Part shown: positions 7,186-64,000 of the stretch, one piece after another
Layout of the letters: the number at the start of each line of letters is the position of its first letter
Position numbering within the stretch: position 1 is the first letter of the stretch
From: Candidatus Latescibacterota bacterium
Lineage (GTDB): Bacteria > Latescibacterota > UBA2968 > UBA8231
Direction of reading: 5' to 3'
DNA: 64,000 nt
Assembly: GCA_964291625.2 (NCBI GenBank)
Contig: OZ220089.1
Coordinates: 2,240,001 to 2,304,000, forward strand
Position numbers and translations under genes: made by a program
The notes under the pieces: model-generated
The model's input: only the letters and a program-made list of their open reading frames with translations
What the model was told of the DNA's origin: nothing
The model's database searches: none

Positions 7186-10100
7186 TCAGCGGACCAGGAC
7201 CACGGGCGCCCGGTGATCGACGCGCTCACCGCCGGCCCTCGCCGTCAGCACGTAGAGGTAGGTGCCGTTGGCCAGGGGGCGGCCCACCTCGTCGCGGCCG
7301 TCCCACGACAGCTGGCCGAATCCGGCTCCGAAGGCAACGGGCCCCAGGCGGCGGATGCGGCGCCCGCCGAGAGCGTACAGATCGACGCCGACCTCGGCTC
7401 CCCTCGACAGGAAGAAGGTGAAGGCGGCACCCTCGCCGCGCACCGGGTGGGGGTGCACGAGGACGTTGGTGGCGTGGAGGTCGGGGCCGACCAGGAGATC
7501 GATGCGCGACACGGCGAGCTCTCCCTTGTCGTCCACCAGTCTCGCCTCCACCTGCTGCAGGCCCTCGGCCATCCGGTAGAGGGCGCTCGCTCCGGCGGCG
7601 GTGGTCCACGTCGAATCCGCCGTCACCGGTGAGCCGTCCACGGCGAGCTCGATGCGGCCCGGGCCGTCCGCCTCGACCCACAACGCCCGGGGGCCGAGGG
7701 CGTCCCCGCTCTGCAGCTGGTGGCCCCCCGGCCAGGCCCGGAAGACCAGCCGCGGGCCCGGGGCGATCAGGAGCACGGAATCGTTCCCCGGGTCGGCGTC
7801 CGGGCCCCCATGGAGCACGCGCACCCGGGTGCCCGGCAGCAGCGGCCCCAGGGAGTCGAAGACCGCGGCCACCAGGGCCCCGGCGGGCAGAGCCGGCAGC
7901 GGGCGCTCCCGAAGCGGCTGCCCCGGCCTCCCCTCCAGGCGGAGGGACGCCGGCGGCGACGGCACCTCCCCCCGGTTGCGGACCGCCGCCCGGACCACCC
8001 CCTCGCCGGCCTCGGCGGCGGCCACCTCCAGGTCCGCCAGACCCGTGTAGCTCACCTGCCACTCCGAGAGGCGGGCGCCGGCGGCGGTGTCCACGAGCGC
8101 CGCCAGGCGCAGCCGCCGGAAGCGCTCCGCCTCGAGGCCGGAGAGGTCCACCGAGCCGGGGGCGGCCACCGCCCGTTCGGGGAGATCCGTCCAGCCGCCG
8201 TCCTCCGCGGGAGCCTGGACGCTCACCTGCACGCCGCTCCCCTCCACGGTCAGAGTCCCCCAGGCCGCGGCCGGTCCGATGGGCGGCGACCACAGGCGGG
8301 CCGGCTGCCTGCGGCCGTGGCGCCCGTAGCGGAACAGGGAGGCGCCGGTCTTGTCCAGCGGCTGCCCCGGCCGCACCACGGCGCCGAGATCGGCCAGCCA
8401 GACCTTGTCGTTCACCCAGTCGTACTGGCCGGCGAGGATCCCCGTCTCCTCCTGGTCCGAGGTCCACTCGTCGATGAAGGATCCGTCCACGGCGCTCACG
8501 GCGCGGATGCGGCGGCGGCCGGCGTACTCGATCAGGTAGAGACGCTCGCCGTCGGCCAGGACCCCGTCCGTCCACAGGTAGGTGAAGCCCGTCTCCGTGG
8601 GCGGCGCCACGAACTCGCGCACCAGCCGCCAGCCCGCCTCCGGCTCGAAGACGCGCACCCGCCAGCCGACGCGCATGCCCACGGCGGAGCTCATGGAGAC
8701 GTTGTACACGTAGCGGCCGTCGGAGGTGATCAGGGCGTGGATCACCTGGCCTGGCGCCGGCTCCTCGACGACGCGTCCCGTCTTCCAGTCCACCAGGCCG
8801 TCGGGGACCCGCACCGTGTCGAGCCGGCCCGTGCGCGGGTCGATGCGCTCCAGCTCGAAGGTCTGCCCCGCGTCACAGTAGAGGTAGCCGTCGGAGTGAC
8901 AGGTGGCGGCGATCCCGGCCGAGGTCGAGTCGGGCAGGAACCCGTAGAGCCGGCCGCGCTCGGTGCCGCCGAAGCCGGTGCCGATGCGGGCGAAGAAGTC
9001 GGTACCGGCGTAGCGGGTGGAAGGGTCGTTGAACCACCGCTTGGCGTAGAGGTACTCCCCGTCGGTGGCCACGATCCCGGCGCCGTCGAGCTCGCCGACG
9101 GTGAACCCGTCCTCGCGGGTGGCCGCCGCGGGCCGGAAGGCCGGCCGGCGGGAGGAGACCACCACCGCCTCCCCCTCGGCGGCGAGACCGCCCCCCGACT
9201 CGCCGTGGGCCAGGAGCTGAGGCCCGCGGCTCCTCCACAGGCCGTCCGCGGCTCCGGGGGGCGCCGGCTCCAGCGCGAAGGTCCGCACCGCCGACCACGG
9301 ACCGGGGACGGCATCGTCCACCAGCCGCACCCGCCAATGGAGGGATGACCCCGGCGGCGTCGCGAACCCCTCGAAGGCGTGCTCCGCCAGGCCCTGCCGG
9401 GCGGTGACCAGCGGCGACCACGCCGTGGCCGAGTCGGGGAAACCCGGCTCGGTGGAGAGGGCGAACTCGCAGGCCAGGCCCGCCGACTCGCCCGAGGCGT
9501 CCACCGGCGTCAGCGCGCGCAGCGCCGCGGCGGGGGCCAGGCCGCCGTCGGACGGCGACAGGGGCGCAGCGGCGCGGGCATCGAGGATGCGGAGGGAGAG
9601 GTCGAGGCGGTTGTCGCTCTCGTCGGCTTCCTCCACCTGGTCGTCGGCGTCGACGATCAGGGAGAGGAGGTAGGGACCGCGGCGGTCGCCCACGGCCCAG
9701 TCGAAGCGCAGGCTGTCGCCGCCGGCGAAGGGGCCGCGCCGCTGCACCCAGAGGGTGTCGGGGACCGCTCCCGGCGCCTCTCCGAGGAGGGCGACGGTGA
9801 GGCTGTCGGCGCCGAAGCGGGTGTTGTTGCGGAACCGGCCCGTGACCGTCACCGTGGCGCCGGTGGTCACCCTTCCACCGAGGACGGACAGGTCGGCGGC
9901 GGCGTAGTCGGCGTCCGGCGCCAGGGCCAGCTCCTGGGCCGGATCACCGATGAGCTGCATCGTCTCCACCACGTCGCGGTAGCTGGAGTGGGCCGCCAGG
10001 ACCCGCGCCTTGGCGGCGTCGAGGACGGGACCGAAGCGCAGCCGGCCTTCGGCGAAGAGCTGGCTGTAGAGCTGGTCGCTCAGCAGGCGGTTCTGGGCCG

Positions 10101-12798
10101 TCCGCGACAGGGCGGTGGCCGAGATGAAGGCGATGGCGCCGCCCTCCTCGTGCTCCGTCATCAGCTCGCTCAGGGCCTCCACCGTGGGCAGGGTGAAGAG
10201 CCCGTTGAGGCACGAGAGGGCCATCATCAGCGGCAGGCGGCCGCCGTTGCGCACCTGGTTCAGGTACTCCCAGTCCGGGTACCCCGTGGAGAACAGGTAC
10301 TGCATCGCCCCGGCCGCCCCGTGGCCGGAGAAGTTGACGATCAGGGCGCCGTCGTTGAGGGCGTCGAGGAAGGCCTTGCCCCGGGGGTTCGGCAGGGGCG
10401 CCTCGTCGGGTGCGTAGATGCGCACCGACTGCAGGCCCGCCGGCTCCGTGTAGCGCGCCGCGAGCGAGTCGAGGGGGCCGGAGAACTCGTCCTTGGCGTG
10501 CCAGTTGGCGGCGAAGACCGAGCGGCTGCGCCAGTCCCCCGGCTCGGGGCTGGAGTCGTAGGCGATGATCTTGTCCACCACCCGCTCCGCCTCCTCCGCC
10601 GAGTCGACGGCCAGCCGCCCCACGGAGAGGTCGGCCAGCAGGTCGTCGCCGTCGACCAGGGCGAGGTGGTAGTCGGAGGGCGAGAACCCCCGTTCCCGCG
10701 CCAGGTAGTAGCGGGTGGGCACGAGCGTCCAGTTCGGCTTGCCGGTGTAGATCCCCCGGTAGTCCCAGGTCGCGTCCCCGAGGAGGGTGACGAAGGCCGG
10801 ACGCGGCGCCCAGGCTTCGTAGGCGTGACGGATGAAGTCGGCCACCGCCTCGCGCTGGACGCGGCCGAAGCTGAACTCGTCGTACACGTCCTCGATGGAG
10901 ACGACGGTGACCCGCAGCCCGTGGCCGCGCCGGTGGCCGGCGAGGCGGTGCGCGGCGTCGAGGAACTCCGGGTGGGAGATGATCACGTAGTCGGCGCCGT
11001 GGCTCCCCGAGCGCCAGTCGGAGGGCGTGTCGGGGACGCCCTCCGGCTCCCGCAGGGAGAGGCTGTCGGCGGCCACGTAGAGAGGCGGCGAGGCGGGAGC
11101 GTCCTCGAAGGTCGCCTGGAAAGAGGTGTCGGCGGCGGTGACCGCCGCCCCTGTCAGCAGCGCGTCGTTGGCGGCGTCGAGGAGCAGCACCTCCGGGTGC
11201 CGGAACCCCTCCACGGTGATGCGATGGCCCTCCGGCGCGGCCTCGACCGGCGCCGCCAGGAACCCCGGACCGGCGTCGAACCGGCGGCGGTAGGTGACCC
11301 GGAACCAGTTGAACCAGATCTGGTCGACCTTGATGCGGTCGGCGTACCCCTGCAGCAGTATCCGGTTGCGAGGCTTCAGCCAGCCGGAGGGCACGGAGGC
11401 GTCGATCAGACGCGGCACCTGCCCCACCCAGTAGGCCTCCTCGAGGACCCGCGAGTCGGCGCCGGTCCAGTTGAAGTGCACCACCGTGTGGTGCTCCCCG
11501 AACCCTTCGCCCGTCCGCCCCTGGAGGGCGACCTCCACCCGCGCCTCGTACTCCTCCTCGTCGTACAGGGCCGTAATGTCGCCGGCGAAACTCTGGCTGG
11601 AGGGCGTTTCCGGCTCGGTGGCGGTCAGCGCGTCCTGGGGGGGCTGCCAGAACCAGCGGTCGATGTGCGGGTCGGTGGCGAATCCGAGTTGGTCGAAGCT
11701 GCGGTCGATCTCGTGGTGCGCCGCGTGCAGGTACCACTCCCTCTCCCGGTAGCCGCGCTCCGGCGAGGCGTCCCGCTCTTCGTAGCGCCGGCCGGGCGCC
11801 CCACCCCAGGTGAGCCAGTACGTCTCCTCCGGGCCGTACTCGCTCTCGTGGTCGCGCTCCCGGCCGGCGGTGACCGCGCGCCGGTAGCGGCCGTAGAACA
11901 GCACCTCGTCCCCGGCGTCGAAGGCGTCGTCCTCGCCGCCGCGCACGACCAGGGGGATCTCGGCGCCGGCGTGGAAGAGGCGGAAGGTCCGCGGATCGAT
12001 CGATTCCGCCTCATAGTGAGAAAACGCCTCCCACCCAGGCGTGATGCGGTACACGCCGTCAGCCGGCACCAGGACCTTGATCCAGGGGAGAGCCGGGTCG
12101 TACCAGCCGTTGTCGGAGGCCGGGCGCGCCGCCGGCCGGGGAGCCGCCCAGGAGGAGGGGGGCGGATTGATGAAGGCCCCGCGCAGCAGGTCGCCGTGGG
12201 GGTCGGGGAGAGGCGCGGGTCGGTGGGCCCCCCCGCCGACGAAGGCCACCTCCACCAGAAGCCGGCGGTGCACGCGGGTTCGCCCGGTGACCGGATCGAC
12301 CTGCCACGGGAAGAGCCGCAGCCGGTGGGCGGGTGTGCCGCGCAGCCGCCCGAGAGGCTCCGTATGGGCGAGGGCCGCCACCTGGCGCGGGTCCAGTACC
12401 ACGGCATGGCTGTCCGCGCTCATCGGCTCCACGCCTGAGTACTCCTGGTGCGCCTCGGAGACCACCGACAGCCGCAGGCGGGCGCCGGGCGGGGCCGCCA
12501 CCAGGGCCGCCACGTACGGCAGGTCCACCCCTCCCGGACCGGCCCCCCGGGGCAGCCCCGGCGCGCTGAGGCCCCGGCCTCCCGGGCCGATCCCGTCCTC
12601 CACCTCCAGCACGAGGCGCAGACCCCAGGCGCCGGAATCGACCAGGCGCAGTCCGGCGGCGGAGGGGGAGGCGGCGGCGATGGCGGCCGCCACCGCTCCG
12701 GCGAGGACGAGCAGGGGATGCCCTCGGAGGATCGCGAGAGGACCCGGTCCGGCGGTGGGATCTGGTCGTAAGCGCATGGGAGAGAAGCGAGTCCGCAT
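7186..12798 (-). CDS. C25-family cysteine peptidase (gingipain/PorU-like sortase) with propeptide-like region, CARDB domains, propeller-like insert and C-terminal FlgD-Ig/T9SS-like domain
   Basis: ADYVIISH, IEDVYDEFSFG, LLGDA, SDYHLALVDGDD, VGRL; catalytic NFSGHG and ALSCLNG; QLIGDPA; CARDB EADESDN; C-terminal WDGRDEVGRPLANGTYLY. Confidence 0.85.
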   Translation of the reverse strand: MRTRFSPMRLRPDPTAGPGPLAILRGHPLLVLAGAVAAAIAAASPSAAGLRLVDSGAWGLRLVLEVEDGIGPGGRGLSAPGLPRGAGPGGVDLPYVAALVAAPPGARLRLSVVSEAHQEYSGVEPMSADSHAVVLDPRQVAALAHTEPLGRLRGTPAHRLRLFPWQVDPVTGRTRVHRRLLVEVAFVGGGAHRPAPLPDPHGDLLRGAFINPPPSSWAAPRPAARPASDNGWYDPALPWIKVLVPADGVYRITPGWEAFSHYEAESIDPRTFRLFHAGAEIPLVVRGGEDDAFDAGDEVLFYGRYRRAVTAGRERDHESEYGPEETYWLTWGGAPGRRYEERDASPERGYREREWYLHAAHHEIDRSFDQLGFATDPHIDRWFWQPPQDALTATEPETPSSQSFAGDITALYDEEEYEARVEVALQGRTGEGFGEHHTVVHFNWTGADSRVLEEAYWVGQVPRLIDASVPSGWLKPRNRILLQGYADRIKVDQIWFNWFRVTYRRRFDAGPGFLAAPVEAAPEGHRITVEGFRHPEVLLLDAANDALLTGAAVTAADTSFQATFEDAPASPPLYVAADSLSLREPEGVPDTPSDWRSGSHGADYVIISHPEFLDAAHRLAGHRRGHGLRVTVVSIEDVYDEFSFGRVQREAVADFIRHAYEAWAPRPAFVTLLGDATWDYRGIYTGKPNWTLVPTRYYLARERGFSPSDYHLALVDGDDLLADLSVGRLAVDSAEEAERVVDKIIAYDSSPEPGDWRSRSVFAANWHAKDEFSGPLDSLAARYTEPAGLQSVRIYAPDEAPLPNPRGKAFLDALNDGALIVNFSGHGAAGAMQYLFSTGYPDWEYLNQVRNGGRLPLMMALSCLNGLFTLPTVEALSELMTEHEEGGAIAFISATALSRTAQNRLLSDQLYSQLFAEGRLRFGPVLDAAKARVLAAHSSYRDVVETMQLIGDPAQELALAPDADYAAADLSVLGGRVTTGATVTVTGRFRNNTRFGADSLTVALLGEAPGAVPDTLWVQRRGPFAGGDSLRFDWAVGDRRGPYLLSLIVDADDQVEEADESDNRLDLSLRILDARAAAPLSPSDGGLAPAAALRALTPVDASGESAGLACEFALSTEPGFPDSATAWSPLVTARQGLAEHAFEGFATPPGSSLHWRVRLVDDAVPGPWSAVRTFALEPAPPGAADGLWRSRGPQLLAHGESGGGLAAEGEAVVVSSRRPAFRPAAATREDGFTVGELDGAGIVATDGEYLYAKRWFNDPSTRYAGTDFFARIGTGFGGTERGRLYGFLPDSTSAGIAATCHSDGYLYCDAGQTFELERIDPRTGRLDTVRVPDGLVDWKTGRVVEEPAPGQVIHALITSDGRYVYNVSMSSAVGMRVGWRVRVFEPEAGWRLVREFVAPPTETGFTYLWTDGVLADGERLYLIEYAGRRRIRAVSAVDGSFIDEWTSDQEETGILAGQYDWVNDKVWLADLGAVVRPGQPLDKTGASLFRYGRHGRRQPARLWSPPIGPAAAWGTLTVEGSGVQVSVQAPAEDGGWTDLPERAVAAPGSVDLSGLEAERFRRLRLAALVDTAAGARLSEWQVSYTGLADLEVAAAEAGEGVVRAAVRNRGEVPSPPASLRLEGRPGQPLRERPLPALPAGALVAAVFDSLGPLLPGTRVRVLHGGPDADPGNDSVLLIAPGPRLVFRAWPGGHQLQSGDALGPRALWVEADGPGRIELAVDGSPVTADSTWTTAAGASALYRMAEGLQQVEARLVDDKGELAVSRIDLLVGPDLHATNVLVHPHPVRGEGAAFTFFLSRGAEVGVDLYALGGRRIRRLGPVAFGAGFGQLSWDGRDEVGRPLANGTYLYVLTARAGGERVDHRAPVVLVR

Positions 12799-58741: not shown

Positions 58742-59980
58742 ATGCATGAATTCATGGACACGCTGGGGGCGTGGTTCGCCGAGCACCCCTTTGAGCGCCA
58801 GGCGGCCCACACCGCCGGTCTCATTCTGCTTGCGTGGGCAACCCACCTGCTGGGCCGCAAGGTCCTGCTGCGCTCCATGACGGTCCTGATCCGGGCGAGC
58901 AGCACCAGGATGGACGACGTGCTGCTCGACCGGGGCGTGCTGAACCGCGCCGCCCTGCTGCTGCCGGTGCTCGTCTTCTACTACGGCGCCGACGGTCTGC
59001 CGGGATCGAGAGAGACGGTCCTGCAGGTGGTCAACGCCGGCCTGCTCATGGTGGTGCTGCTCGTGGCCGGGGCCGTGATCGGAGCCCTGCAGGAGGCGCT
59101 GGCCGACTACGACGCGCGCACCGAGGTGCCGATCAAGAGCTATGCCCAGATCGTGAAGATCGCCCTCTACGTCATCGGCGGTCTCATGACGGTGGCGGTC
59201 CTGACGGGGCGGTCGCCCTGGGTGCTGCTCTCGGGCGTCGGCGCCCTGATGGCCGTGGTCATCCTCATCTTCCGCGACACCCTCCTGTCGCTGACGGCCA
59301 GCTTCACCATCGCCTCCAACCGGCTCGTCAAGGTGGGCGACTGGATCGAGGTCCCCACTTTCGGAGCCGACGGAGACGTCATCGAGATCGCCCTGCACAC
59401 GGTGAAGGTGCAGAACTGGGACAAGACGATCACCACCATTCCCACCCACAAGCTGGTGGACGTCTCCTTCAAGAACTGGCGCGGCATGCAGGACAGCGGA
59501 GGCCGCCGGATCAAGCGCGCCATCCACATCGACATGAACTCGATCCGGTTCTGCGACGCGGAGATGCTGCAGCGCTTTCAACATTTCGAGCTGATCCGTG
59601 ACTACCTGGCCTCCCGTCAGAAGGAAGTGGAGGAGCACAACGCCGAATCCCGGGTCGACGCCTCCGAACTGGTCAACGGCCGGCGCCTGACCAACGTGGG
59701 CACCTTCCGGGCCTACGTGGCCGCCTACCTGCGCAGCCACCCGCTCATCCGCCAGGACATGACCTTCCTGATCCGTCAGCTGGCGCCGACGGGGCAGGGC
59801 CTGCCCCTCGAGATCTACGTCTTCACCAGCACCACCGTGTGGGCCGACTACGAGGGGATCCAGTCCGACATCTTCGACCATCTGCTGGCGGTGGTGCCGC
59901 GCTTCGAGCTGCGCGTCTTCCAGGAGCCCGCAGGGTCGGACTTCGCGGCCGCCTTGCACGCGCCGGCGCCGCGGCCATAA
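58742..59980 (+). CDS. ybdG: Mechanosensitive channel, MscS family (YbdG-like)
   Basis: VKVGDWIE, GADGDVIEIALHTVKVQNWDKT, FKNWRGMQDSGGRRIKR and YEGIQSDIFDH. Confidence 0.9.
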   Translation: MHEFMDTLGAWFAEHPFERQAAHTAGLILLAWATHLLGRKVLLRSMTVLIRASSTRMDDVLLDRGVLNRAALLLPVLVFYYGADGLPGSRETVLQVVNAGLLMVVLLVAGAVIGALQEALADYDARTEVPIKSYAQIVKIALYVIGGLMTVAVLTGRSPWVLLSGVGALMAVVILIFRDTLLSLTASFTIASNRLVKVGDWIEVPTFGADGDVIEIALHTVKVQNWDKTITTIPTHKLVDVSFKNWRGMQDSGGRRIKRAIHIDMNSIRFCDAEMLQRFQHFELIRDYLASRQKEVEEHNAESRVDASELVNGRRLTNVGTFRAYVAAYLRSHPLIRQDMTFLIRQLAPTGQGLPLEIYVFTSTTVWADYEGIQSDIFDHLLAVVPRFELRVFQEPAGSDFAAALHAPAPRP

Positions 59981-60004: not shown

Positions 60005-60571
60005 ATGAGCAGGAGCGACCGCAAGACCCTCGCGGCCATGGTCCGAATGGCGCTGATCCTGCCGGCCTTCGGCCTCGTGCTCCTTCCTCCGGCGCCTGCC
60101 GGGGCGGCGACCCGATCGCAGTTCACCCTGCCGTCCCTCGACGGCAAGGAGTTCTCGCTGCAGAAGGCGCTGGAAGAGGGCCCGGTGATCCTCGATTTCT
60201 GGGCCACCTGGTGCAAGCCCTGCATCAAGGGGCTGCCCGCGGTGCAGAAGATCGCCAAGGAGTTCGAGGATCGCGGTGTGGGGGTCTACGCCGTCAATGT
60301 CGACGGTCCGCGCAATCAGCCCAAAGTGAGGCCCTTCCTCAAGCGCCACCGCCTGGAGCTGCCGGTCCTCCTCGACCATTCGCGGCAGGTGATGAAGCAG
60401 TTCCAGCTGCCCGCGGTGCCGGCGTCGATGATCATCTCCACGGAGGGCGAGGTGGTGTACAAGCACTTCGGGTACAAGCCGGGAGACGAGGTCCGCCTGC
60501 GCGCCCGACTGATGGAGTTGCTGGGAGAGGCCGTTCCCGATTCAACGAAAGGGGAAGCCGATGAGAGCTAG
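60005..60571 (+). CDS. Exported TlpA-family thiol-disulfide oxidoreductase
   Basis: Signal peptide (AGA|A), DFWATWCKPC, cis-Pro loop AVP and GYKPGDE. GGAGG RBS. Confidence 0.9.
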   Translation: MSRSDRKTLAAMVRMALILPAFGLVLLPPAPAGAATRSQFTLPSLDGKEFSLQKALEEGPVILDFWATWCKPCIKGLPAVQKIAKEFEDRGVGVYAVNVDGPRNQPKVRPFLKRHRLELPVLLDHSRQVMKQFQLPAVPASMIISTEGEVVYKHFGYKPGDEVRLRARLMELLGEAVPDSTKGEADES

Positions 60572-61445
60572 AAGCGTCCTGCGGAAGGGACCGTTCGCCT
60601 GCGCGGCGATCGCCCTCACCGCTCTCCACGTGGCCGGAGCCGGGGAGGCCGAGGCCCAGGCGGCCGGCGATCCGGCCCCCACCTTCGAGCTCGAGACCGT
60701 GGACGGGGAGCTCGTGTCGCTGGGCGACTTCCTCGACGAGAAGGTCGTCTACATCAACTTCCTCGGGAACACCTGACCGTACTGCGTCGCGGAGGCCGCG
60801 AGTTCCGAGGCAATCTGGCAGGACTACGGGGGCGATCAGCTCATCGCCCTCGGAATCGATATCTGGGACGGACGGGCATCGAGCGTCAAGTCCATCTGGG
60901 TAGACGACGGTCTGGCGACCTACCCGATACTGGTCAACGGTTCGGGGGTGGCCCGGGACTACGGCGTGGTCCAGGACTACTACATCGTCATCGACCACGA
61001 GGGGGTTATCCGCTACCGGTCGCCCGACGCCAGGCTCGGCCAGCGCTACAACGACGGCGAGATCCGCGAGGCCATCGACGCCGCCCTGGCCGATCTGGCC
61101 GCCGCCCTGGAAGAAGTGGAGGAGGAGCCGGAGGAAGTGATCACGGCGGTCTCCACCCCTCCCCGGGTGCCCGCCGGCTTCGCCCTGGAGGCCTGGCCGA
61201 ATCCCTTCAACGCCGAGACCACTCTCTCCTTCACGGTGACCGCGGCAGGTCCCGTGGCCCTGACCATATTCGATCTGCAGGGGCGGGTCCTGCGCGGCTG
61301 GTCCGGACACTACGGTGCGGGGACCCACTCCCTGACCTGGGACGGGCGCGACGAAGGCGGTGAAGCGGTCGCCTCCGGCGTCTACATCGCTTCCGCGCGC
61401 CAGGGGGGCGCGGCCATCGCCCGGAAGGTCACTCTGCTGAAGTAG
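60561..61445 (+). CDS. Predicted selenoprotein: signal peptide + thioredoxin-fold (AhpC/TlpA-like) UxxC domain + FlgD-Ig/T9SS-like C-terminal sorting domain (294 aa, Sec72)
   Basis: The in-frame TGA at 60774-60776 gives INFLGNT-U-PYC, aligning exactly with DFWATW-C-KPC of the adjacent TlpA. The frame stays open to TAG 61445 and joins ORF 60948..61445. C-terminus AWPNPFN...IFDLQGR...WDGRDEGGEAVASGVY...RKVTLLK. Confidence 0.85.
60787..60801 (+). promoter_or_regulatory. Candidate bacterial SECIS hairpin
   Basis: TCGCGG-AGG-CCGCGA is a perfect 6-bp stem. Its G-containing apical loop starts 16 nt after the TGA. Confidence 0.6.
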
Positions 61446-61468: not shown

Positions 61469-62995
61469 TTACAGCACCTCGCTGGTGAGGCGCAGCTCGA
61501 TGCCCTCGAAGCCCAGCACCTCGTAGCAGCTGCCGCCGGTGCAGGCCAGCCCCGTCCTGCGCCGGCCCCCGAAGACGTCCAGCGTGTGGGTGTCGCGGAA
61601 CCGCCAGCTGGCGCCCAGGGCCCACCAGTACGTCGCACCCGACTCCGAGGCCCCCGCCTCCAGGGGATCGTTGGACCTCTGCAGCTGCAGGGACCAGGTC
61701 CATGCCGGATAGCGGCTGAGCTCCACCGTTCCCAGCAGGTTCTCGTAGGGGAAGTCGCTGCGGCCGAAGCGCCGGTCCACATCCTGCACCTGCAGGTCGG
61801 CGCTCGCGGCGTGGCGTCCGCCGGCGGACCAGTCCCAGCGCGTGCCTGCCGTCAGGCGGCGCTCGTTCTCGAGGATGCGGTTGCGCGTGTAATCGAGGAA
61901 CAGCTGCCCGTGCAGCGCCTCTCCCACCGGGGAGTCCAGCTGCAGGAAGTACTCGCGCAGGGACTTCTCGTCCCCCGGGTCCGATCCCCGGCGAGTGGCC
62001 AGGTTCCAGGCGGCGGTCAGTCCGATGCCGCGGGGCAGGGCCCAGGTCAGCTCGGCCTGCACTCCGGCCTCGTCGTCGGCGAGCAGGGCGTGGGTCTCGC
62101 GGTTGAGGAGGAAGGCCTCGTGCTCCCGGATCAGCGTCGGCGGGTTGTTGAGGCTCGGGAAGGCGAAGTCCTGGTAGTCCTTCAGCTCCAGGCTCAGCCC
62201 CCAGGTCCCGCCGGTCAGGGTGCCGGCCAGGTAGAGCGCCCTCGGGTGGTCGCGCTCCAGGGAGAGCCAGGGTCCGGGGGCGGGGTCGATCCGGGCGTAC
62301 TCGCCGTAGAGATCCCCGTACCAGCCGCCCAGTCCGAGCCTCTCGAGGAGGGAGCCGAAGCGCAGTTCCCCATGGGTGGTGGCGCCGAGCTCCTCCTCCC
62401 CGCCGAAGGAGAACTCGATCAGTCCCGCCCCCACCTCGATGTCGCCGCTCACCCTGGCCCGGACGGCGCCCCCGGAGACCCGGCCCTGGCGCCGGTCGAG
62501 ACCCTTCAGCCCGGGGGCCAGCTCGCTGTTCACGGGCACGCCGTGCAGCGCCAGCACTTCCACCTGCCGCCACCGTCCCCTCACCCGCGCGCCGTCGAGG
62601 TCGCGTACGATCTGGTAACGCTGGCGGGAGACGCGGTCCTCGGTGATGACGCCCGGAAGCTCGAAGGCGTGCAGCAGCACACCGCGTCCCACCAGGGCGT
62701 AGAAGTGCCCCGCCGTGGCCTCGAGACCGCCGCGGCGCCAGGAGAGGGACCGCTGGGCGAGATGGAGATAGCCGCGGTCCTCGCCGCTGGAGCGGAAGGC
62801 CTCGCTGCGGGCGCTGGCCAGGAACCCCGCGGACTCGAAGCCGAGGCTCACCTGCTGGTACAGGGCCCGCAGGTCGGCCGGTTCGGCGTCGGGCAGGTTT
62901 CCGAGCTGGTACTCGTGGAGGGCGGTGACCCGCACCTGGGCGTCGAGGGGAGCGGCGGCCGTCAGGACGACGGCCAGCAGAGCGAGAAGGATCAT
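61469..62995 (-). CDS. DUF6029-like outer-membrane beta-barrel with C-terminal CxGGxC
   Basis: Signal peptide (LDA|Q), GHFYALVGRG, LELKDY, NNPPTL, many amphipathic beta-strands and C-terminal GLACTGGSCYEVLGFEGIELRL. Family name is from recall of the motif, not from an HMM search. Confidence 0.75.
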   Translation of the reverse strand: MILLALLAVVLTAAAPLDAQVRVTALHEYQLGNLPDAEPADLRALYQQVSLGFESAGFLASARSEAFRSSGEDRGYLHLAQRSLSWRRGGLEATAGHFYALVGRGVLLHAFELPGVITEDRVSRQRYQIVRDLDGARVRGRWRQVEVLALHGVPVNSELAPGLKGLDRRQGRVSGGAVRARVSGDIEVGAGLIEFSFGGEEELGATTHGELRFGSLLERLGLGGWYGDLYGEYARIDPAPGPWLSLERDHPRALYLAGTLTGGTWGLSLELKDYQDFAFPSLNNPPTLIREHEAFLLNRETHALLADDEAGVQAELTWALPRGIGLTAAWNLATRRGSDPGDEKSLREYFLQLDSPVGEALHGQLFLDYTRNRILENERRLTAGTRWDWSAGGRHAASADLQVQDVDRRFGRSDFPYENLLGTVELSRYPAWTWSLQLQRSNDPLEAGASESGATYWWALGASWRFRDTHTLDVFGGRRRTGLACTGGSCYEVLGFEGIELRLTSEVL

Positions 62996-63010: not shown

Positions 63011-63364
63011 TCAGCCCTTCCGGAACTCGCCGACGGCCGCGGCCTGAGACTCATAGATCGGGATGACCTCATCGAAGCCGCTGGCGGTGAAGACCTCGCG
63101 CACCGGATCGCAGAGGGAGCAGATGCCGAAGTGCATGCCATGCCTGTTGAACCTCCTGCCAACCCTCAGGCCGGCCCGGAGGCCGGCGCTGCTGATGAAG
63201 GAGACCTGCTCGAAGTCCAGGATCAGGGCCTGATCGGCGGCATCGATCCCGGAATCCAGCTCCGCCTGGAGCTTCTCGGCGTTGCTGCCGTCGACCCGGC
63301 CGAGAATCCTGGCAACAGCGATTCCCTTCTTGCGCTCCCACGTGATGTCGAACGCCGATTTCAT
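63011..63364 (-). CDS. STAS-domain anti-sigma-factor antagonist
   Basis: GRVDGSNA, LILDFEQVSFISSAGL (phosphorylatable Ser) and VREVFTASGF. AGGAGG RBS. Confidence 0.9.
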   Translation of the reverse strand: MKSAFDITWERKKGIAVARILGRVDGSNAEKLQAELDSGIDAADQALILDFEQVSFISSAGLRAGLRVGRRFNRHGMHFGICSLCDPVREVFTASGFDEVIPIYESQAAAVGEFRKG

Positions 63365-63625
63365 CAGCCTCCTGCTTCAGGTCGGGCCGGTCGCGACCCC
63401 CTCGGGACTCCACGGAGATCCGGGAAGTTCAAAGAGCCCTTCGCCGGCAGTCAAGGCAGGGCGCTCTTCCTCGGGATAGCAGCAACTGTAGATGGTGTCC
63501 GCTGAGCCTTTGTCCATACTAAAGAGCCTTGTCTTTCTCGCGTCCATAAGTAAATTTGGCGCCGATGCTTTCATTGGATGGCCCGCTACGCAAAGAACTT
63601 GCACAAGCGCGCGCACCGGAGGGCA

Positions 63626-64000
63626 ATGATGTACCGCGGTCCGACCGGCGAATACGCAGCCACGCTGCATGGCGATGAAGAGGTCCGGGCATTCGTGCCC
63701 CGGCCGCTGCCCCCGACCCCCCCGCTCCAGATGGAGGGCCGCCTGCAGGTGCTGCTCGAGGAGGCGACCCATGCCCTCGGCCGGCTGGACGGTGCAGCCA
63801 CGCTCCTGCCTGATCCCGGCCTCTTCATCTACAGCTACGTGCGCAAGGAGGCCGTCCTGTCCTCCCAGATCGAGGGCACGCAGTCGTCCCTGTCAGACCT
63901 CCTGCGCTTCGAGTCAGCCCATGCTCCGGGCGCTCCGGTCCAGGATGTCCTCGAGGTATCGAGGTATGTGAAGGCCGTGGACCACGCGACCGCCCAACTC
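63626..64000 (+). CDS. Fic-family protein (class II, N-terminal Fic_N/DUF4172 domain), 3'-truncated by the window edge; absent from the ORF track
   Basis: Translated by hand: MMYRGPTG...AFVPRPLPP...LGRLDG...LLPDPGLFIYSYVRKEAVLSSQIEGTQSSLSDLL. Contains the inhibitory SxxxEG motif and a GGAGG RBS. Confidence 0.9.
   Translation, partial: MMYRGPTGEYAATLHGDEEVRAFVPRPLPPTPPLQMEGRLQVLLEEATHALGRLDGAATLLPDPGLFIYSYVRKEAVLSSQIEGTQSSLSDLLRFESAHAPGAPVQDVLEVSRYVKAVDHATAQL

Follow-up and report, generated by a model that had tools for sequence, protein, structure and literature searches.

A predicted exported selenocysteine redoxin with a T9SS-like sorting tail in a Latescibacterota genome

Introduction

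Does an in-frame TGA codon end a short gene, or is it read as selenocysteine (Sec, U) within a longer one? This question is raised by a locus in a 64,000-nucleotide (nt) stretch of DNA from Candidatus Latescibacterota bacterium (assembly GCA_964291625.2, contig OZ220089.1, positions 2,240,001 to 2,304,000), which was analyzed as a whole and is called the window here; coordinates without a contig name are window positions. The list of open reading frames (ORFs) obtained with translation table 11 contains two plus-strand ORFs in the same frame, one at 60561–60776 that encodes 71 amino acids (aa) and ends in TGA, and another at 60948–61445 that encodes 165 aa. A first-pass annotation made from the letters alone had proposed that both are pieces of one hidden selenoprotein with a thioredoxin-like fold, a UxxC motif, a signal peptide, and a C-terminal tail resembling those of cargo proteins of the type IX secretion system (T9SS). 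Our analysis indicates that the TGA at 60774–60776 very probably encodes selenocysteine and that the locus is a single, mis-annotated selenoprotein gene.

Results

A single reading frame with one in-frame TGA

When 60561–61445 (plus strand) was retranslated with TGA read as U, a single 294-residue precursor resulted, ending at a TAG stop codon (61443–61445), and U72 was the sole step that departed from table 11. U72 (60774–60776) is the first residue of a U-P-Y-C motif, and the codon of its partner residue, Cys75, lies at 60783–60785. The read-through product also has A-E-A-Q at residues 30–33 and contains the segments INFLGNT-U-PYC, WPNPFN, WDGRD, ASGVY, and KVTLLK; the frame, coordinates, and motifs given by the first-pass annotation were all correct. 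Its expectation that standard annotation would miss the gene was borne out as well, as public protein sets carry the family solely as C-terminal fragments of 162–219 aa. Because the family is stored only in this form, selenoproteome counts of uncultured FCB-group lineages are too low.

The TGA codon is unchanged in a contig from an independent public RNA-library run of another study (X2). This contig spans 60681–61250 and differs from the window at one position, 61007. A second X2 contig (60146–60625) bridges the junction between the selenoprotein gene and the TlpA-like gene that precedes it. In two further public runs, X3 and X18, the TGA position had no coverage. TGA also serves as a normal stop codon in this organism, as had been claimed. 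No other stop codon is as frequent in the genome; TGA ends 75 of 132 genes that have the same C-terminal tail domain, and the family's own stop codon is TGA in 6 of 14 orthologues.

Conservation of the TGA column

We compared the codon-72 column among homologues from relatives, from the phylum, and from public sequence collections. Among 61 related genomes, each match spanning the catalytic domain has one TGA. The U72 column is TGA in 25 of 26 aligned homologues from relatives, with the remaining sequence being a tandem paralogue that has Cys. Searching 168 genomes of the phylum with the catalytic domain as the query, we found the domain in 66. Of the 89 matches listed, an in-frame TGA occurs exactly once in 86 (with an additional TAG in one) and is absent from 3, and conservation of the TGA extends to homologues at ~30% identity. 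Across 76 loci from named public metagenome-assembled genomes (MAGs), U is present in 62 ORFs at 61 loci, in MAGs labeled Latescibacterota, Gemmatimonadota, Calditrichia, or Planctomycetota and in two unclassified MAGs. The U72 column is Cys in ten Bacteroidota-labeled loci. A profile search of 1.84 billion representative sequences returned 78 proteins of 230–400 aa among its best 150 matches, and the Sec column in these 78 proteins is Cys in 75, Tyr in 1, and part of a missing region in 2. A tail-like motif is present in 69 of the 78. Sources name the Cys forms 'redoxin family protein', 'T9SS C-terminal target domain-containing protein', or 'peroxiredoxin'. Both kinds of orthologue that a selenocysteine codon would be expected to have, those with Cys and others with TGA, were found at codon 72. 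Recurrence of the column in 25 of 26 homologues, together with the X2 contig, rules out a TGA that arose by chance or by assembly error.

The window gene was also compared to the copy in a relative (G007). Synonymous changes accounted for 36 of 80 codon changes downstream of the TGA and 10 of 24 upstream, and third codon positions held 51 of the 95 differences. By this comparison, coding continues beyond the TGA, and the sequence is under purifying selection before and after it.

Other members of the family vary in copy number and architecture. Several genomes carry two to four copies. The relative's copy that has a TAG besides its TGA (G017, contig C1, 4136753–4137187) is probably a paralogue undergoing decay. 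In distant homologues (L146 and the Planctomycetota-labeled L148 and L149), the motif reads F-F-G-F-W-U-P-P-C or F-F-G-Y-G-U-P-P-C; these have TGA at the same column and no sorting tail.

A candidate SECIS hairpin and the selenocysteine machinery

A putative selenocysteine insertion sequence (SECIS)-type hairpin, UCGCGG-AGG-CCGCGA, is located at 60787–60801 (plus strand). It has a stem of 6 base pairs (bp), a 3-nt loop with G at position 2, and a calculated stability of −8.8 kcal/mol; it begins 10 nt past the UGA, which places the loop 16 nt past the UGA. A 2026 review gives the criteria for bacterial SECIS (bSECIS) elements as a 3–9 nt loop and a 4–16 bp stem, a G in the first two loop positions, a distance of 16–37 nt from the UGA, and a stability of −7.5 kcal/mol or lower (PMC13188914). 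All four of these criteria apply to the hairpin in the window, and also to those of 17 among 23 distinct homologues. When the helix was held in a fixed register across the 23 homologues, 84.8% of cells were paired compared to 31–51% for slid controls, and two pairs of the hairpin showed compensatory changes. The mean stability of the hairpin was −9.07 kcal/mol compared to −5.04 kcal/mol for synonymous-codon shuffles, with 11 of 23 sequences at or below 0.05.

A search for selA, selB, selC, and selD in the genome (5.9 Mb, 2 contigs, 95% complete) found tRNA-Sec, selA, selB, and selD. The tRNA-Sec gene (74 bits, anticodon tca) adjoins selB (342 bits) and selA (518 bits), and selD (325 bits) is of the Sec type with its own active-site TGA. 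Comparing genomes, we found that selA scored above its cut-off in 64 of 64 genomes having the TGA form and that the TGA form was present in 0 of 37 selA-negative genomes, one of which carries a homologue lacking TGA; as related genomes are not independent, the comparison can only be descriptive. The proposal of a hidden selenoprotein is backed by the conserved TGA, the Cys homologues, the Sec machinery, and the SECIS-type hairpin.

Two other selenoprotein genes were seen in the same genome. One is selD itself (T-C-G-U-A-A-K; contig C1, 1116503–1117309, minus strand), and the other encodes a second exported UxxC selenoprotein (contig C1, 4518794–4519360, plus strand), a 188-aa peroxiredoxin (Prx)-like protein whose signal is of the lipoprotein type (LLAGC) and whose motif is F-F-U-G-F-C. 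Similar small GG-containing loops follow the UGA of both, at 17 nt in selD (an 8-bp hairpin with a GGUC loop) and at 20 nt in the second gene (loop AGGUG).

Several observations pull against selenocysteine insertion in this strain. The RNA-library support consists of contigs, and DNA may be present in such libraries. At least one bSECIS criterion is missed by 6 of the 23 homologues, and the GC-rich hairpin of the window copy is nearly dictated by the amino acids encoded there, such that a fraction of 0.26 of synonymous shuffles is equally stable. The 67 nt after the TGA fold no better than shuffled sequences (z +0.99; 163 of 200 shuffles at least as good), and RNAalifold found no consensus structure in a 42-nt alignment. 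The comparative pairing, these results included, lends the hairpin moderate support. Finally, a 1-nt frameshift appears to interrupt the assembled selA ~46 codons from its end. The match to the gene is split between two frames, with the switch near codon 409 in a C homopolymer (contig C1, ~3425990–3426010, minus strand), and the usual C-terminus continues in the other frame.

If the selA frameshift were real, it would break Sec synthesis, UGA-72 would terminate translation, and the gene would be silent in this strain while the family would still be a selenoprotein family. We consider this outcome very unlikely. selA is present in all nine other genomes of the genus, in seven of them at full length in one frame from end to end, with a match that is cut short in the other two (G004 and G008). 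The three selenoprotein genes of the window's genome are otherwise intact and without decay, and homopolymer errors are presumably common in assemblies such as this one. It is more probable that the homopolymer is in error than that the gene is truly damaged.

The split of the frame into 71-aa and 165-aa ORFs under table 11 is also what would be seen if the locus did not encode a selenoprotein, being instead a nonsense pseudogene, an assembly error, or a gene in a genome where TGA is generally recoded as Trp, Gly, or Cys. Such an origin is hardly credible for a TGA that is kept in 86 of the 89 listed homologues, is flanked on both sides by sequence under purifying selection, and recurs in an independent run. 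General recoding fits poorly with TGA as an ordinary terminator of this genome and of the orthologues themselves, and the TGA form co-occurs perfectly with selA.

The catalytic domain

Residues 36–187 (60666–61121) form a thioredoxin-fold catalytic domain of the TlpA/redoxin type. The sequence matches Pfam families PF00578 AhpC-TSA (52.8 bits; cut-off 26) and PF08534 Redoxin (50.0 bits; cut-off 26.6) over residues 35–155. An AlphaFold2 model, for which 13 members of the family were used, is confident for this fold, has a mean predicted local distance difference test (pLDDT) score of 80.2, and places U72 immediately ahead of a helix (73–77), the usual place of the CxxC nucleophile. BLASTP pairs U72 with the first Cys of W-C-K-P-C in the neighboring TlpA-like protein (19% identity, E 3e-5), in agreement with the original alignment of the TGA on that nucleophilic Cys. 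Pfam, the model, and BLASTP concur on a thioredoxin-like fold in which the UxxC motif lies at the nucleophile site. Searches with Foldseek and with a family profile against Protein Data Bank (PDB) sequences matched ResA, CcmG, other TlpA-like reductases, the peroxiredoxins AhpE and Bcp, and pneumococcal Etrx2, together with 2LS5 and 3KCM. Scores against NCBIfam equivalog models were far under their cut-offs (ResA, 32.6 vs 170; DsbE, 22.0 vs 359 and 21.1 vs 123), and we rejected membership in the TlpA, ResA, or DsbE equivalogs even though the fold is the same.

Peroxiredoxins have the active-site motif P-x-x-x-T-x-x-C, with one peroxidatic Cys, and Sec is a good peroxidatic residue. A protein in the same location could be a selenol peroxidase that clears peroxides at the envelope rather than a disulfide reductase or isomerase. 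AhpE (a 1-Cys peroxiredoxin) and Bcp are among the best structural matches, PF00578 AhpC/TSA is the top Pfam match, and one source labels a Cys form 'peroxiredoxin'. ResA, CcmG, and TlpA-type reductases match equally well, however, and U-x-x-C aligns on the C-x-x-C of TlpA and ResA. In F-L-G-N-T-U-P-Y-C, the P-x-x-x-T-x-x-C pattern is absent, and we rejected membership in the peroxiredoxins. The Thr position of peroxiredoxins is taken by Sec, giving a motif of CxxC type. Peroxidase chemistry seems to us quite unlikely.

Signal peptide, linker, and sorting tail

Residues 1–33 (60561–60659) form a predicted signal peptide with a basic start, a hydrophobic core, and a putative cleavage site at A-E-A/Q. 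This N-terminal pattern is common to all aligned orthologues, and the AlphaFold2 model has a low-confidence helix (12–25) ahead of the fold. An acidic linker at residues 189–201 (61125–61163), predicted to be disordered (pLDDT below 50), joins the catalytic domain to a T9SS type-A/FlgD-Ig-like sorting domain at residues 208–294 (61182–61442). The tail is modeled as a seven-strand beta-sandwich, with its strands within residues 208–292.

The tail scored 30 bits against TIGR04183, the NCBIfam T9SS type-A model (cut-off 23), and 33 bits against PF13860 FlgD_ig (cut-off 27; residues 220–279). Its description as T9SS-like/FlgD-Ig held for these two models and failed for a third, PF18962 Por_Secre_tail. 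The same domain is present in 154 ORFs of the genome and lies within 8 aa of the stop codon in 132. Two PorU proteins are encoded in the genome, at 572 and 537 bits against a cut-off of 420, and SprA reaches a summed score of 607 bits (cut-off 200); a gene for a PorV-like protein sits beside one of the PorU genes. Our best reading of these matches is that the selenoprotein would be sorted to the surface by a T9SS-type route.

Other results count against this route. The PF18962 score was 17.5 bits compared to a cut-off of 27, and in sequence the tail is closer to FlgD domains of known structure than to any T9SS tail of known structure. The PorV-like gene scored 114 bits, under the cut-off of 250, and GldK was detected only below threshold (101 vs 350). 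GldM had no match in this 95% complete genome, which is weak evidence of absence because control genomes gave no match either. As GldM was not found and GldK and PorV were under their cut-offs, a complete canonical T9SS is not demonstrated.

Two side observations concern sorting modules. On the minus strand, window positions 7210–12084 hold a 1898-aa frame with a PorU/peptidase-like region at 9919–11319 (206 bits against a T9SS sortase model) and the same sorting domain at 7210–7458. Some Sec-form homologues (L043, L044, and L046; G023, G038, and G042) end in a dockerin- or EF-hand-like D-F-D-G-D-G…F-F-L-F-A repeat in place of the T9SS-type tail; by its sequence, this repeat may be another type of extracellular anchor joined to the same catalytic domain.

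Gene context: a TlpA-like reductase and a DUF6029 barrel as conserved partners

The selenoprotein gene is part of a conserved triad with genes for a TlpA-like protein and a DUF6029 barrel, an association that the first-pass annotation had missed and that gene-order comparison brings out. The upstream gene (60005–60571, plus strand) shares 11 nt with the start of the selenoprotein gene and encodes a 188-aa TlpA/ResA-like protein, predicted to be a periplasmic thiol-disulfide reductase, with a W-C-K-P-C motif and matches to AhpC-TSA (85.6 bits), Redoxin (75.4), and Thioredoxin (37.5); its best solved relative is 2M72 (E 1e-21). The downstream gene (61469–62995, minus strand) is convergent with the selenoprotein gene and encodes a 508-aa protein that matches PF19494 (54.1 bits), a predicted DUF6029 outer-membrane beta-barrel. 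Of the 76 related loci, 46 have a TlpA-like homologue within 3 kb (45 of them on the same strand), and 46 have a DUF6029 homologue, essentially the loci with the TlpA-like gene.

The DUF6029 homologues have a C-terminal CxxGxC in 46 of 46 cases. In the window protein, the pair is C485/C490 (A-C-x-x-G-x-C-Y), in a hairpin that precedes the last strand. The model of this protein (pLDDT 81.3, predicted template modeling score 0.77) is a large all-beta barrel that resembles FimD/PapC ushers, TonB-dependent receptors, AlgE, and Wzi (template modeling score ~0.5). In a published study, a polysaccharide-export role is suggested for DUF6029 from HHpred similarity to Wzi (PMC9603273). Bacteroidales have the three genes in a tight same-strand operon, with a Cys form replacing the Sec form, and the DUF6029 protein of that operon is 29% identical to the window's over its full length (E 1e-71). 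A DsbD/CcdA-type membrane protein is encoded elsewhere in the window's genome. The other 30 of the 76 loci, mostly from a paralogous F-F-G-F-I-U-S-H-C subfamily (for example, L087–L104), keep the tail and have neither neighbor within 3 kb. Genes that flank the triad in the window, encoding an MscS-type mechanosensitive channel (58742–59980, plus strand), a STAS-domain protein (63011–63364, minus strand), and the start of a Fic-family protein (63578–64000, plus strand), did not recur with it.

These partners bear on where the enzyme would act. A real selenoprotein could stay in the periplasm, with its tail used for docking to, or plugging, a partner such as the DUF6029 barrel, and could act with the TlpA-like reductase on cysteines of the periplasm or outer membrane. 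The enzyme is conserved alongside a reductase of the periplasm and a barrel of the outer membrane, and the DsbD/CcdA-type electron source is found only at the inner membrane; the shortfalls for GldM, GldK, and PF18962 and the sequence match of the tail to solved FlgD domains fit this explanation too. Against it, the tail passes TIGR04183, and the same domain terminates 132 ORFs of widely varying size, the pattern expected of a sorting tag. The genome encodes PorU sortases, SprA, and a PorV-like protein, and sources name Cys relatives from Bacteroidota and Calditrichota as T9SS C-terminal target domain proteins. We judge periplasmic retention unlikely.

Discussion

The account we favor, as probable though far from settled, is that the locus encodes a selenocysteine thiol-disulfide oxidoreductase that is made by read-through, exported, sorted to the surface by a T9SS, and active within an envelope triad. 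SelB and tRNA-Sec would decode UGA 60774–60776 as Sec, guided by the small G-loop hairpin, and the Sec translocon would then export the 294-aa precursor via its N-terminal signal peptide. The type-A tail would pass the protein to a T9SS-like apparatus (SprA, PorU, and the PorV-like protein) for surface display or release. In catalysis, U72 would make the nucleophilic attack and C75 would resolve it, with formation of a selenenylsulfide. Partners within the triad would be the periplasmic TlpA-like CxxC reductase and the DUF6029 barrel with its invariant Cys pair. Within this account, the analysis shows that there is one gene with a Sec codon and establishes the fold, the place of the motif, the family of the tail, and the conservation of the triad, and we infer the cleavage site, the route of export, the surface location, the substrate, and the re-reducing partner. 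More specifically, the triad might constitute a thiol/selenol relay over the outer membrane, running from CcdA/DsbD to the TlpA-like reductase, the DUF6029 Cys hairpin, and finally the surface Sec redoxin, an idea that we put forward as speculative and doubtful.

To our knowledge, known bacterial selenoproteins are cytoplasmic or periplasmic. If the Sec redoxin is sorted to the surface, selenium biochemistry reaches the cell exterior, which raises the question of how the enzyme is re-reduced there, and T9SS cargo lists omit a redox enzyme. If the relay also operates, the protein would be the first extracellular bacterial selenoenzyme, and the relay the first described route that keeps a thiol or selenol enzyme reduced beyond the outer membrane. 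The conserved pairing with a reductase and a Cys-bearing barrel offers a concrete, genetically testable hypothesis.

The first-pass annotation knew of no described example of a Sec redoxin with a T9SS tail, and none appeared in the literature searched, which also contained no link between selenoproteins and T9SS, no secreted bacterial selenoprotein of such architecture, and nothing on selenoproteins of Latescibacteria. The BSepDB paper has no mention of TlpA, redoxin, signal peptide, secretion, Gemmatimonad, or interchange, and the accessible part of Peng 2016 has nothing on the family described here.

Selenoproteins with related catalytic domains have been reported. UxxC families named in the 2026 review are 'Prx-like thiol:disulfide oxidoreductase' (PF00578), 'Thiol:disulfide interchange protein' (PF13098), and 'Redoxin family protein' (PF08534, HEU0032618.1) (PMC13188914), and the GOS UxxC selenoproteins include Prx-like 1 and Prx-like 3 (PMC2398784). 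The window protein shares with the published Prx-like and Redoxin selenoproteins the same Pfam domains, Sec as the first residue of U-x-x-C, abundant Cys homologues, and the same logic of a conserved TGA plus SECIS. These proteins (prototypes HEU0032618.1 and WP_010940744.1) were compared by description, and the accessible descriptions leave a signal peptide, a tail, and a TlpA/DUF6029 context unmentioned. The Prx-like 3 fusion 'Unknown_3', as described in the available text, has three conserved Cys residues that the tail of the window protein lacks (PMC2398784).

Cys-form redoxins of Bacteroidota, Rhodothermales, and Calditrichota have the same layout of signal peptide, redoxin domain, and tail, with C-x-x-C in 75 of the 78 representatives; they differ in having Cys for Sec and are uncharacterized, with generic names only. 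ResA, TlpA, and CcmG (DsbE) share the fold, the motif at the start of helix 1, and an extracytoplasmic location, whereas the window protein differs from them in its Sec, its sorting tail, the absence of a Trp ahead of its motif (G-N-T-U in place of W-C), and the lack of a link to genes for cytochrome c or Cu-center maturation. HBP35 of Porphyromonas gingivalis (PDB 5Y1A), a Cys form that the first-pass annotation had named, is alike in carrying a thioredoxin-fold domain on a T9SS C-terminal domain. We rejected it as a close relative, as 5Y1A is not among the best 60 of 72 PDB matches to the family profile. The surface-exposed pneumococcal thioredoxins Etrx1 and Etrx2 (4HQZ, 2YP6, and 4HQS) set a precedent for thioredoxin-family enzymes that work outside the cytoplasmic membrane and are fed by CcdA. 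Their TlpA-like fold was matched by both structure and sequence; they differ from the window protein in having a Gram-positive lipoprotein anchor, a Cys form, and no outer membrane. Because UxxC redoxin and Prx-like selenoproteins are already known, the novelty is limited to the tail and the triad: the secretion tail and the gene context are new, and the catalytic domain is of a known kind.

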